The notes under the pieces: model-generated
What the model was told of the DNA's origin: nothing
Seen by the model: the letters and a program-made list of their open reading frames with translations, nothing else
Databases searched by the model: none
Source: Myxococcota bacterium
GTDB lineage: Bacteria; Myxococcota; UBA727; JABDBI01
Assembly (NCBI GenBank): GCA_040387835.1
Contig: JAZKCZ010000002.1
Span: 341,166 to 405,165, forward strand
Length of the DNA: 64,000 bases
Direction of reading: 5' to 3'
Translations under genes and position numbers: made by a program
Part shown: one piece after another, positions 6,245 through 8,557 of the stretch
Numbering within the stretch: position 1 is the stretch's first letter
Layout of the letters: each line of letters opens with the position of its first letter

Positions 6245-6302
6245 GGCTCCATGGGAGGGGCACGTTCTTACCCAGGCCGGCGTGAGCACTCGTCCGAACA
6301 GC
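6245..6302 (+). repeat. Truncated MITE-like arm (6245-6287) fused to a 16-bp duplicate of the dnaE 3' end (cactcgtccgaacagc, 6287-6302)
   Basis: ggctccatgggaggggcacgttcttacccaggccggcgtgagc matches the left arm of the 6841..7075 element. The 16-mer is identical to 9020..9035 inside the dnaE stop region. Confidence 0.55.
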
Positions 6303-6438
6303 TAAAAATAAAGCCAGAACTACAATCAGCTTATTAAACGTAGTCCGTCGGTATTAAAGAAAAAACGCCCCTGCAATCCCCAGCAACCACACCTGTGCAA
6401 AGGTGCCAGGCGCTCATCTTCAACGGGGATCTTATATC

Positions 6439-6512
6439 GCCCCTTCAGGGCTCTTTAGGAGGGGGACGGTGCCTACCCAGGCCGCCATAGATCCTAGATA
6501 TGCTGTACCGCC
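6439..6512 (+). repeat. Truncated MITE-like arm plus conserved tail module (ccatagatcctagatatgctgtaccgcc)
   Basis: cgccccttcagggctctttaggagggggacggtgcctacccaggccg aligns to the arm of 6841..7075. The tail recurs at 8519..8557. It sits immediately 3' of minus-strand ORF 6537..6821. Confidence 0.55.
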
Positions 6513-6536
6513 GAGCGATTAGTATGGCTCACCTAT

Positions 6537-6821
6537 CTAGGGTCGCCCCAACAGTTGTATCACTCCAAACACGGTGTTGGTAACCAAAGTAGTAACACCT
6601 AGCGCCGTTATCAGTGGAAACAGGATGGCATTGTGTGAATAGCCCGCTAATCTTGCTGCCATATATCCGCCTGCGGTCATCATCGTTATCCTTCCGTAAT
6701 CAGTCTCAGCGCGAGATACCGATGGCGAGGTTAACATCAATGCTAAAACCGAAAAGCACAAATATTTTTTAAAGTTCGCTGGCAAATACATGGTAGCTAC
6801 AACAGCTACACCAAGGGACAT
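6537..6821 (-). CDS. Small membrane/secreted protein, paralog family member D
   Basis: N-terminus ATMYLPANFKKYLCFSVLALMLTSP is paralogous to the 8541..8984 product (ATMYLQANYKKHCLVFCLMIVTP). It has a C-terminal hydrophobic helix. Confidence 0.5.
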   Translation of the reverse strand: MSLGVAVVATMYLPANFKKYLCFSVLALMLTSPSVSRAETDYGRITMMTAGGYMAARLAGYSHNAILFPLITALGVTTLVTNTVFGVIQLLGRP

Positions 6822-6840
6822 AATCCCTTTAAGAACGCAT

Positions 6841-7075
6841 CGCCCCTTCAGGGCTCCTTACGAGGGGGAAGGCGCCTACCCAGGCCGGCGTGAGCGAAGC
6901 TCACTCTGACCTGGGCTATATTCTTTGAGCCTTGCAGGCTCAAAACCTAAATATAAACTGCATTAACTTTTTTGCCCGAAGGGCGATAAGTCCTCTAGCC
7001 CAGGTCAGAGTGAGCTTCGCTCACGCCGGCCTGGGTACAAACGCCCCCACCCATTTGGAGCCCTGAAAGGGGCGG
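6841..7075. repeat. MITE-like palindromic element: ~76-bp inverted arms (6841-6916 and 6998-7075) around an ~80-bp core with two small hairpins
   Basis: The arms share an identical 32-bp core, ccggcgtgagcgaagctcactctgacctgggc, in inverted orientation. Each arm folds as cccagg / ccggc / gtgagc-gaa-gctcac / tctga / cctggg. Core hairpins are tttgagccttgcaggctcaaa and gcccgaagggc. No ORF inside. Confidence 0.6.
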
Positions 7076-7260
7076 TAAGGCCGCAGGGCCACCACAGGTA
7101 CTAGAAACCTCGGCCGTCTCTTGCGTACAAAATATAGCGCCTGTGAGTGTAGGCCAATTCCGCACAAAGCTATAGACGAGGTTGCCGCTATCAGTTTCCT
7201 GGTTTCAGCATCATAAGAGGCAAACAAATTGACAAGGCAAAATTTATGGAAGGAGTGCAA
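7021..7260 (-). pseudogene. Frameshifted, truncated paralog of the 8541..8984 family. Its 3' end runs into the MITE arm.
   Basis: DNA at 7100-7230 is about 85% identical to 8790-8920. The protein reads ...SYDAETRKLIAATSSIALCGIGL, then a 1-bp indel against the intact paralog, then translation of the repeat arm (...ALRPYRPFQGSKWVGAFVPRPA*). Confidence 0.5.
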
Positions 7261-7677
7261 GCTTGCCTAATAGCAAGAATAAACCTGAGTAAGGTCCTCG
7301 CAGAAATTGCAACAACCTCAGGGAGCGTTCTTCGTCCTGAGTGGAGCCATTTGGCGTTGGAGCAACAGACTCAACTGGCCCATGTTCCCAAAGTGCTAGC
7401 TGTAACGGCCTCGATAGGACAGTCCCTTCCAGAACAGGCACACGCATATAATATGGCAGCGCGGCTTACAAATGCTTTTTTCGTTGGCTCGGCTTTAGAT
7501 CTTTTACATGATGAACAATTTGACCCACTTCCGGCGAATTCTCTCTTTTCGGACAATACTTACGAAGAGGTGTGTCGAACTCTATCGGAGGTAGGTTCAG
7601 CGATATGGGCTGATAGTCCTATGCTCTCTTTCAATCGGGTGGTGGCTGCGGTAAAAAATGCTAGAAATAAGGTGTAA
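7246..7677 (+). CDS. Hypothetical protein (143 aa), antisense to the paralog array
   Basis: ORF with ATG start. No recognisable motif. It lies inside islet 2 between paralogs. Confidence 0.35.
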   Translation: MEGVQACLIARINLSKVLAEIATTSGSVLRPEWSHLALEQQTQLAHVPKVLAVTASIGQSLPEQAHAYNMAARLTNAFFVGSALDLLHDEQFDPLPANSLFSDNTYEEVCRTLSEVGSAIWADSPMLSFNRVVAAVKNARNKV

Positions 7678-7855
7678 CGAGCCGGCGCTTGAAACTATGG
7701 ATTGTCAGATTCCGGTCGTGGACGAGATTAAAAGATTGCAGATCTTGGTCTATCAGCTACCCCATGGAGCGATAAGACAAGCAACGGCGCTCAGGTTAAG
7801 AGACTTACAGGACAAATTGAGGAACTTAAAAGAACCACTGTATGCCTTAGATTAA
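7658..7855 (+). CDS. Hypothetical small protein (65 aa), overlaps the previous ORF by 20 nt
   Basis: ORF only, no motif. It could be spurious. Confidence 0.2.
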   Translation: MLEIRCNEPALETMDCQIPVVDEIKRLQILVYQLPHGAIRQATALRLRDLQDKLRNLKEPLYALD

Positions 7856-7876
7856 AGGGATTAGTTTTATGGGTCG

Positions 7877-8341
7877 CTAGCGATTTACCCAACTTCTTCC
7901 TATATCGTAAATTATGACGATGGCAGGGGGCGCATAGGCAAGGGTCACCCCAGTCGCAAACACTGGCAACCACCAACTCCGCGGGGACGTATATTTATTA
8001 AGGCGAACTCCCTGTATTTCAAGCAAGCGGGTTTTATCGCCACAAAATCTGCGCGGTACAGATTCCAACGGGCAAGTACTTTCGAAGTTGGTACAATTCG
8101 ACATCAACACAGTAGAGTTACCTTGCAAATGCAAACAACAATGCAGAAAAGAGCCGTCGCACTCTTCTCTTTGGCCCCTTTCGAATCCCATAACCTGAGC
8201 AAGAGTATACATACAAACGCCAACCGATGAACTCGCAATAACCCCAGCCCAGATCTTCCAGTCCAATGGTTTCCGCGTGGTGGCTGCTTGTGCGTGAACG
8301 GACAACAACAAAACAATGATCAAAGCCAGTTGATGAAACAT
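7877..8341 (-). CDS. Small Cys-rich membrane/secreted protein. ATG start at 8341 (MFHQLALIIVLLLSVHAQA...). The ORF track extends to an upstream TTG at 8383.
   Basis: Two N-terminal hydrophobic segments, a middle domain with 9 Cys (ECDGSFLHCCLHLQGNSTVLMSNCTNFESTCPLESVPRRFC), and a C-terminal hydrophobic helix. Same architecture as the flanking paralogs. Confidence 0.5.
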   Translation of the reverse strand: MFHQLALIIVLLLSVHAQAATTRKPLDWKIWAGVIASSSVGVCMYTLAQVMGFERGQREECDGSFLHCCLHLQGNSTVLMSNCTNFESTCPLESVPRRFCGDKTRLLEIQGVRLNKYTSPRSWWLPVFATGVTLAYAPPAIVIIYDIGRSWVNR

Positions 8342-8418
8342 GCCTGGTCGATATAAAGCTAAGGGCGCTTGCGCAATCCCCAAAATTTATTGCTTGGAGC
8401 GGACTTATCGCTAGATGC

Positions 8419-8557
8419 TGGTGGAGGGGGCGTTCTTACATAGGCCGACGTTCGCTTCGCTCTCTCTGACCTGGGTACAAACGAGCCTGCCCACGAAAGA
8501 GCCCTGAAAGGGCGGTAAGACCATATCGCCGCCATAGGTATTAGATATGCTGTACCG
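8419..8557. repeat. Decayed MITE copy (plus-oriented degenerate arm fused to minus-oriented arm) and the conserved tail module
   Basis: ...cttacataggccgacgttcgcttcgctctctctgacctgggtacaaacg...agagccctgaaagggcggtaag... aligns to both arms of 6841..7075. The tail ccataggtattagatatgctgtaccgc matches 6485-6512. It lies immediately 3' of ORF 8541..8984. Confidence 0.55.

Follow-up and report, generated by a model that had tools for sequence, protein, structure and literature searches.

Palindromic repeat units downstream of dnaE in a Myxococcota bacterium and their probable relationship to the Acido-Lenti-1 motif

A cluster of palindromic repeats and small genes lies next to dnaE in a Myxococcota genome [GCA_040387835.1, contig JAZKCZ010000002.1, positions 341166–405165]; this stretch of 64,000 nt was analyzed at its full length and is called the window below. 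The cluster is located between dnaE (9015–12530, minus strand) and a gene for a 1280-aa ankyrin-repeat protein, as determined from the list of open reading frames (ORFs) and Pfam searches. It is the sole gene-poor stretch in the otherwise densely coding window, whose GC content is about 48%. It contains five copies of a three-hairpin unit of about 105–115 nt, two of them intact (U3 and U4) and three decayed (U1, U2 and U5), all within 6231–8522. We consider it probable, with moderate confidence, that these units belong to a cross-phylum family of palindromic repeats that includes the Rfam motif Acido-Lenti-1 (RF01687), that the family is selfish and non-autonomous, and that at this locus its units were copied passively by local duplication and then decayed.

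A preliminary description of the locus, made from the sequence alone, had proposed one intact element with a central spacer and at least four decayed copies. A repeat search revealed two inverted arms (6843–6918 and 6996–7071) of 76 nt each, 83% complementary and separated by 77 nt, which differ outside their core, with indels. The core, the 32-mer CCGGCGTGAGCGAAGCTCACTCTGACCTGGGC, occurs exactly twice in the window, at 6885–6916 (plus strand) and 6998–7029 (minus strand), the chance expectation being none. Thus the inverted arms of about 76 bp with an identical 32-bp core were described correctly, and the two-stem hairpin of each arm (CCCAGG/CCTGGG and GTGAGC-GAA-GCTCAC), as well as both spacer hairpins, are present in the predicted folds. 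Comparison with related units indicates, however, that the supposed single element with a spacer consists of two complete units of about 112 nt placed tail to tail 14 nt apart. The two small spacer hairpins are the 3' hairpins (hp2') of U3 and U4.

The order of parts in the unit is hp2 (CGCCCyTTCAGGGC), a G-run, TA, hp1 (CCCAGG, a variable apical hairpin and CCTGGG), CTA, a linker of about 9 nt and hp2'. A covariance model, R1, was built from an alignment of such units with U3 and U4 in its seed, and the window was scanned with it with filters off. U3 (6838–6949, plus strand), formed by the former left arm and the first spacer hairpin, matches the full model with 77.7 bits. It begins with hp2 CGCCCCTTCAGGGC, the G-run GAGGGGG, TA, hp1 CCCAGG-CCGGC-GTGAGC-GAA-GCTCAC-TCTGA-CCTGGG and CTA; the linker and the hairpin TTTGAGCCT-TGC-AGGCTCAAA follow. 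U4 (6964–7077, minus strand, 66.1 bits) comprises the right arm and the second spacer hairpin; its 3' end reads GAGGACTTAT-CGCCC-TTC-GGGC and contains the hairpin GCCC-TTC-GGGC. When folded singly, both units are predicted to form three hairpins, with -49.8 kcal/mol (z -3.0) for U3 and -48.3 kcal/mol (z -2.3) for U4. As single-stranded DNA, the U3–U4 pair is predicted to form one 237-nt hairpin (-95.8 kcal/mol, z -14).

When the element was compared with the whole window by sensitive blastn, additional copies were detected only at 6224–6287, 6435–6484 and 8423–8522. Partial arms had been reported at three further places, and blastn and the covariance model both place them there (6231–6287, 6435–6484 and 8398–8522), so that the number of decayed copies is three and not at least four. 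U2 (6435–6484, plus strand, 33.3 bits, model alignment reaching 6435–6528) retains only hp2, the G-run and TACCCAGGCCG, with 92% identity to the outer part of U3, and at GGCCG it passes into the 3' end of the gene at 6537–6821. U1 (6231–6287, plus strand, 15.8 bits, model alignment 6231–6363) is truncated and degenerate; it is 79% identical to U3 in blastn and contains hp2, the G-run and the 5' half of hp1 up to GTGAGC. U5 (8398–8522, minus strand, 20.7 bits, model alignment 8368–8517) has hp2 CCGCCCTTTCAGGGC, with hp1 and the 3' part degraded; the stop codon of the gene at 8541–8984 precedes it by 19 nt. The region 8419–8518 had been taken for a fused pair of arms; it can be read as part of this single degenerate minus-strand unit, the plus strand giving a partial match of only 7.6 bits. 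Decayed copies fold no better than shuffled sequence (z +0.7 for U2 and about 0 for U5). No other copies were found in the remaining 61 kb or so of the window, where the next-best model match had 8.3 bits (E 0.25); copy counts for the source organism refer to the 64-kb window.

Conservation is unevenly distributed within the units. The hp1 cores of U3 and U4 are identical at 32 of 32 positions, and the hp1 half left in U1 at 19 of 19, while the outer arms share about 70% identity. Given 83% identity of the arms, the probability of a clean 32-mer is about 0.003 (0.83^32). Since the cores are identical at this overall level of divergence, the uniformity of hp1 is probably due either to gene conversion within the palindrome or to a sequence-specific constraint on hp1.

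Palindromes assembled from metagenomes may raise doubts as to their reality. The source is a metagenome-assembled genome (MAG), and short-read assemblers can create inverted joins, so that U3 and U4 might in principle represent a foldback chimera. We compared the locus with a Logan assembly of run SRR26324620, in which a 3.8-kb contig is 100% identical to the window over 7008–10784, including U5. This contig begins at 7008, in the right core inside U4; an exact inverted 32-mer would break the k-mer graph at such a point. The right arm and U5, the copy at 8.4 kb, are thus not artefacts of a single assembler, and the left arm and the palindromic junction are supported by the MAG assembly alone. 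A foldback would also have produced a perfect palindrome, whereas the arms are only 83% complementary and have indels outside the core, and the same tail-to-tail arrangement was found in two unrelated contigs (see below). We therefore regard an assembly artefact as highly improbable.

The repeats are interspersed with small paralogous genes. The most complete paralog is an ORFan gene (8541–8984, minus strand) for a protein of 147 aa (128 aa in the protein database) with a hydrophobic N-terminus, which matched only itself among 1.84 billion representatives and belongs to no Pfam family. A paralog of 94 aa (V4534_04370; 6537–6821, minus strand) is flanked by U2 and U3 as direct repeats. At 7021–7260 (minus strand) there is a remnant paralog equal to the gene 8541–8984 minus 236 nt (8546–8781) lying between TAGA repeats. 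U4 is located downstream of this remnant in the sense direction; as noted in the preliminary description, the ORF runs into the right arm and ends there, and frame changes are seen in tblastn. The proposal that the element itself truncated the paralog was not upheld, because the truncation is accounted for by the 236-nt internal deletion between TAGA microhomologies.

Alignments of the surroundings of the units revealed that: (i) 7014–7105, comprising the right unit and its flank, aligns with 8454–8545 (76%); (ii) 7102–7228 aligns with 8782–8912 (80%), and the 236-nt gap before it has TAGA on both sides; (iii) at the 3' end of the gene 6537–6821, the right flank of U2 (6481–6535) is homologous to 8528–8583; (iv) at the 5' end of the same gene, 6761–6826 is homologous to 8945–9010; and (v) U1 with its left flank (6223–6283) aligns with 8398–8451. 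The alignment resumes in the gene past the TAGA-bounded gap, and the remnant 7021–7260 would therefore be a deletion product that inherited the downstream unit. The flanks are 72–80% identical, similar to the identities among the units, as would be expected of units duplicated together with genes. An exact 16-nt copy of the last dnaE codons (CACTCGTCCGAACAGC; 6287–6302, minus strand, 100% identical to 9020–9035) stands immediately next to the point where U1 is truncated, at a distance of 2.7 kb from the true end of dnaE. It suggests either an older arrangement in which a unit came directly after dnaE or an illegitimate recombination joint. It should be mentioned that a resemblance of the outer end of the left arm (6839–6862) to the 3' end of dnaE (9021–9045) was also considered; the identity is only about 55% beyond TAATCC, and it was judged not significant.

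On the basis of the shared flanks, the following history of the locus can be proposed. One or two founding units would have been present in the regions following dnaE and a small ORFan gene, and local segmental duplication of the small gene together with its downstream unit would then have copied them passively. Later, microhomology-mediated deletions would have occurred, at GGCCG in U2 and at TAGA in the remnant gene, and U1 would have been truncated against the dnaE-end fragment. The two intact units would now persist as a 237-bp near-palindrome with identical 32-nt hp1 cores. Passive local duplication is favored by the homologous flanks, the confinement of all copies to 2.3 kb, the paralogous ORFan neighbors and the loss of folding in the decayed copies; it also fits the window in that this contains no convincing target-site duplication (TSD) and no transposase match. 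At this locus, we infer, the units are no more than recombination-prone palindromes and serve no dedicated function.

The wider surroundings are also variable. Neither the units nor the small genes are present in the flanks of the four closest DnaE homologues (80–87% identity; about 64 kb in all), which are not syntenic with the window downstream of dnaE. From this comparison, what follows dnaE appears to vary within the clade, and the ORFan genes at 6.5–9.0 kb appear to be genome-specific. In the relatives, this position is occupied by genes for an arginase, a Carb_kinase or an RRM protein, or coincides with the contig end (L081–L084). In the window, the interval between the paralog copies contains, on the opposite strand, two overlapping ORFan ORFs (7246–7855, plus strand), of 143 aa (V4534_04375, MES2504096.1) and 65 aa; no Pfam family was found for either. 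An ORF of 168 aa at 7877–8383 (minus strand) is apparently devoid of NCBI annotation, since only one protein accession falls between MES2504096.1 and that of dnaE (MES2504098.1). On the other side of the cluster there is an ankyrin-like ORF remnant (6001–6213), whose C-terminal 14 codons with the stop (...TEPFMTRKPVPY*, 6170–6213) are repeated at 1837–1881. The latter copy (86% in tblastn) is located just past the 3' end of the 1280-aa ankyrin gene, and the repeat is a further indication that the surroundings of the ankyrin genes have undergone local duplication and decay.

To find relatives of the unit, metagenome contigs were scanned with the outer-arm pattern TTCAGGGCTC-N5-9-GGGG-N6-12-TACCCAGG, and matches were revealed on 46 of them. 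Of the 46 contigs, 43 also share features that the pattern does not specify: CGCCC directly preceding the match on its 5' side, a closing CCTGGGCT whose distance varies and, after it, A or G, a linker of 8–10 nt and a small hairpin. As nearly all the contigs share features absent from the search pattern, the matches are not due to chance. Both window arms align column for column with the metagenomic units, and the TA-CCCAGG...CCTGGG-CTA columns are invariant across 29 aligned units, including U3 and U4. In the covariance-model alignment of 64 matches, compensatory changes were detected at all five pairs of hp2', while the base of hp1 is essentially invariant, which in this alignment would point to sequence-specific recognition of hp1.

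R1 found no significant units in about 560 kb of Myxococcota-type dnaE loci (best match 15.4 bits, E 0.009, in L079) and can thus be regarded as specific. The exact core stem pattern of the window arms (CCCAGG-N5-GTGAGC-N3-GCTCAC-N5-CCTGGG) had no matches in the genome and metagenome contig collections, and the core 19-mer and the outer-arm pattern had none in viral contigs. Judging by these searches, the inner core is probably lineage-specific. A six-frame peptide search for ORFs reading through other copies of window-type arms, which is weakly informative, gave none among 5.8 billion proteins.

A search with Rfam models related these units to a known motif. Fifteen metagenomic units pass the gathering score of RF01687 (37.6–46.6 bits against a threshold of 37 bits), and every match of this model on the relatives begins at hp1 and ends at hp2'; the 3' two-thirds of the unit appears to correspond to Acido-Lenti-1. 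In the window itself, RF01687 remained below threshold, its best match (16.9 bits, 6429–6451) covering the second hairpin only; probably, the low score is due to the 21-nt two-tier insertion in hp1 of the window units. The layout of the motif, a first hairpin with a conserved base (CCYAGS.../...SCURGG) and CUA or CUG directly after it, then a linker of about 9–12 nt and a second, covarying hairpin of 4–5 bp with a loop of 3–5 nt, is nevertheless found in U3 and U4. Both read TA-CCCAGG...CCTGGG-CTA, in agreement with the published seeds, and U3 carries a longer variant of the second hairpin. By this layout, the window element would belong to the Acido-Lenti-1 family as a diverged member, from a phylum new to the family, Myxococcota. 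Other Rfam matches in the window (MIR6224, CrfA and others) were at chance level.

The seed alignment of Acido-Lenti-1 comprises 89 sequences from Koribacter, Lentisphaera, Rhodopirellula, Geobacter and metagenomes (Weinberg et al., 2010; PMC2864571). The seeds have the same hp1-CUA-linker-hp2 layout and occur in many copies per genome, both clustered and dispersed, with some arrays spaced at 70–200 nt. The authors report the motif from Acidobacteria and Lentisphaerae, sometimes near group II introns, and say no more; later papers still describe its function as unknown. In a preprint of 2026, Acido-Lenti-1 matches are located downstream of paralogous protease genes of Tannerella.

Evidence for mobility of the family comes from the metagenomic relatives. 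Eleven contigs (L087, L088, L091, L100, L104, L106, L107, L112, L114, L123 and L127) have in common only an element of 153–185 bp with sharp ends, present at unrelated loci (e.g., L087, about 2531–2695). It is bounded by terminal inverted repeats (TIRs) of 16–17 nt (GAGGGTGTGTGAGAAG / CTTCTCACACACGCTC) and flanked by 3-nt TNA direct repeats, which are perfect in five of the 11 contigs (TCA/TCA in one of them) and have a one-base mismatch in three more. In L107, L117 and L123, where hp1 is short, the copies pass the Rfam threshold. Thus, in this metagenomic lineage, the element is a bona fide miniature inverted-repeat transposable element (MITE) containing the Acido-Lenti-1 motif. Its TNA duplication of 3 bp recalls transposition of the IS5 family (IS1031/IS427 type), which we take to be a lead only.

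Inverted pairs are common among the 81 matches. Head-to-head pairs were found in seven contigs (L092, L101, L108, L115, L118, L120 and L130), and tail-to-tail pairs, as in the window, in two unrelated ones (L121 and L128). Tandem arrays were revealed in L125 and L122. The array at 2516–2941 of L125 has a period of about 124 nt, composed of hp1, linker and hp2 with a spacer of about 60 nt, is 98% identical between repeats and reaches the contig end; the units can therefore multiply in tandem, besides forming inverted pairs. Genes adjacent to metagenomic units are ordinary housekeeping ones, for MreC, LptF/G, HflX, HsdS and DUF1800 proteins, and no consistent partner gene was found across the 46 loci. 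A Y1_Tnp gene (IS200-like, HUH; L116, 6064–6669, minus strand, corresponding to L087, 811–1413) and one MITE copy are separated by about 1.1 kb, in which a DUF502 gene is located, and a gene for an IS110-family transposase (L110, 7496–8509, minus strand) is placed about 300 nt from a unit. IS110 elements target REP-like palindromes (REP, repetitive extragenic palindromic sequence). These neighbors are one case each and carry no statistical weight.

These observations bear on the idea that the units of the window represent a MITE or REPIN family (REPIN, REP doublet forming a hairpin) with present or recent activity in the source genome, where independent insertions downstream of the paralogs would have been mobilized in trans by a transposase or a RAYT (REP-associated tyrosine transposase) encoded elsewhere. 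In other genomes, the family includes true MITEs, with TIRs and TSDs, as well as REPIN-like inverted pairs; one member has a Y1_Tnp gene nearby and another an IS110 gene, and the window itself has identical cores and a strongly folding pair. In addition, the U3–U4 pair is flanked by an imperfect 8-nt direct repeat (AAGAACGC / AAGGCCGC, 6/8), a possible TSD; its right-hand copy is also kept beside U5, and AAGGCCGC may belong to the duplicated flank. Independent insertions would, however, have unrelated flanks, whereas in the window homology extends beyond the copies on one or both sides. Furthermore, neither the other 61 kb or so of the window nor the 64 kb from the closest relatives contains copies, the protein search described above found no translated window-type arm, and three of the five copies are truncated and unfoldable. 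The TIR of the MITE subfamily is absent from the window, and tblastn of the 64 kb with the metagenomic Y1_Tnp, one IS110 transposase and a putative E. coli RayT sequence gave no match. An active element at this locus is thus rather unlikely. What remains of the MITE-like family proposed initially is a family of widespread palindromic repeats, with a MITE in one metagenomic lineage; the window copies fit spread by local duplication.

A functional role at the RNA level must also be weighed: the units might represent Acido-Lenti-1 small RNAs (sRNAs), or modules in the 3' untranslated region that stabilize or terminate transcripts of the upstream small genes. Rfam and Weinberg et al. (2010) class the motif as a likely RNA from its covariation, and hp2' covaries strongly in our alignment; hairpin covariation is, however, equally expected for DNA palindromes. 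U4 and U5 are placed in the sense direction just downstream of gene ends, and the matches behind the Tannerella protease genes also favor an RNA role. Taken together, however, the units are not oriented uniformly with respect to their neighboring genes: U2 stands in antisense behind the gene 6537–6821, and U3 and this gene are divergently oriented. Inverted pairs, which are the rule in the family, and copies bounded by TIRs and TSDs, which are products of DNA transposition, also speak against an RNA role.

The mismatches point in the same direction. On the strand annotated in Rfam, the helices of the 64-unit alignment contain 19 A.C/C.A mismatches versus four G.U wobbles, opposite to the expectation for RNA; most of the former concern the pair that closes the hp2' loop and that may belong to the loop instead of the stem. 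Should only one of the strands fold, it may be the one opposite to the annotated strand. In a large share of the Lentisphaera seeds in the published alignment (PMC2864571), an A.C mismatch in hairpin 1 (CCUAGC...GCCAGG) can be seen by eye.

We also considered the units as intrinsic terminators. Sites with a hairpin and a U-tract were not above background (five in 3.6 kb versus 4.0 expected); those inside units, at 8513–8501 and 6898–6917, have weak tails (TCTTTCG and ATATTCTTTG), and T or A runs beside the spacer hairpins are on the wrong side for a terminator. The preliminary description had offered, as its second suggestion, a structured terminator module duplicated together with each gene. 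Duplication with the genes accounts for the window better than transposition, given the homologous flanks, while the terminator part failed this test. On the whole, we find a functional RNA unlikely. An integron origin, with attC sites and gene cassettes, was raised by the small same-strand ORFs each followed by a palindrome; no RYYYAAC/GTTRRRY motifs were seen by eye, no integrase search having been made.

Several points weigh against the local duplication and decay of selfish repeats favored here. The membership of the window units in the Acido-Lenti-1 family is, on the sequence comparisons, transitive, passing through metagenomic intermediates and a model seeded with two window units. Weinberg et al. 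(2010) rated Acido-Lenti-1 as probably RNA (PMC2864571). The identical cores and the intact hp1 half of U1 could mean recent activity or functional constraint instead of passive decay, and the imperfect 8-nt repeat could be an old TSD. Many dispersed copies, as well as an autonomous partner, may exist beyond the 64-kb window.

For the source genome, the locus carries little weight: in this variable region behind dnaE, duplicated ORFan genes and repeat relics are undergoing decay. Of broader significance is that a 15-year-old Rfam motif of unknown function, annotated as an sRNA by many genome pipelines, is now linked to mobile DNA. This link rests on the TIR- and TSD-bounded MITE holding a motif that passes the threshold, on the frequent inverted pairs and on the fact that the unit is longer than the 46-nt model; it provides evidence that Acido-Lenti-1 is a module of mobile DNA instead of, or besides, an sRNA. 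A stronger version can be hypothesized, to which we give even chances: Acido-Lenti-1 would be the conserved core of cross-phylum mobile palindromic DNA and not an RNA gene, the CCCAGG/CCTGGG base would serve as the recognition site of a transposase or a host protein, and the window would hold a diverged member whose palindromes drove local gene duplication and deletion. The nature of the motif is now testable by genome-wide repeat analysis, and caution is advisable in reading its matches as regulatory RNAs.

Under the reading that we favor, the family would have spread as selfish non-autonomous DNA in intergenic regions beside ordinary genes, in the form of TIR-bounded MITEs with TNA duplications, of inverted pairs resembling REPINs and BIMEs (bacterial interspersed mosaic elements) and of tandem arrays. 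REP, BIME and REPIN sequences (Bertels and Rainey, 2011; PMC3116915; PMC3337134) are likewise short, GC-rich, imperfect palindromes in extragenic DNA. REPINs are inverted pairs with a short spacer that fold into one long hairpin, as do U3 and U4 at a distance of 14 nt; both kinds of repeat form mosaic clusters of alternating orientation, and in both a conserved (N)TAG stands beside the palindrome on the complementary strand. Unlike REPs of about 25 nt, the unit has about 110 nt and three hairpins, and the GTAG head is not conserved. REPINs are mobilized by RAYTs, whose genes typically have the repeats on either side, whereas the 64-kb window has no match to a cognate RAYT (tblastn with two Y1/RAYT queries, one of them a putative E. 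coli RayT sequence) and the 46 metagenome loci include one loosely linked Y1_Tnp gene. REPINs also number tens to hundreds of dispersed extragenic copies in a genome; in the 64-kb window, all copies of the unit fall within 2.3 kb. REPIN-RAYT systems are lineage-specific; the present family, in contrast, spans several phyla with conserved sequence.

With respect to typical MITEs, no autonomous parent element was identified for any subfamily, and the window copies differ from TIR-bounded MITEs in having no subfamily TIR, no clear TSD and mutually related flanks. The metagenomic subfamily, on the other hand, resembles TIR-bounded MITEs such as Correia, ERIC and IS5-type derivatives in its TIRs of 16–17 nt and its 3-bp TNA duplications at 11 unrelated sites. 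Compared with Acido-Lenti-1, the window units carry the 21-nt two-tier insertion in the first hairpin and a host that belongs to Myxococcota and not to Acidobacteria or Lentisphaerae, and the full unit exceeds the 46-nt Rfam model by a conserved 5' extension consisting of a further hairpin (hp2) and the G-run. In layout the two correspond: both have a GC-rich hairpin with the base CCYAGG.../...CCURGG, followed by CUA, by a U/A-rich linker of about 9–12 nt ending in CG and by a 3' hairpin of 4–5 bp with a UUCG or UUCA loop.

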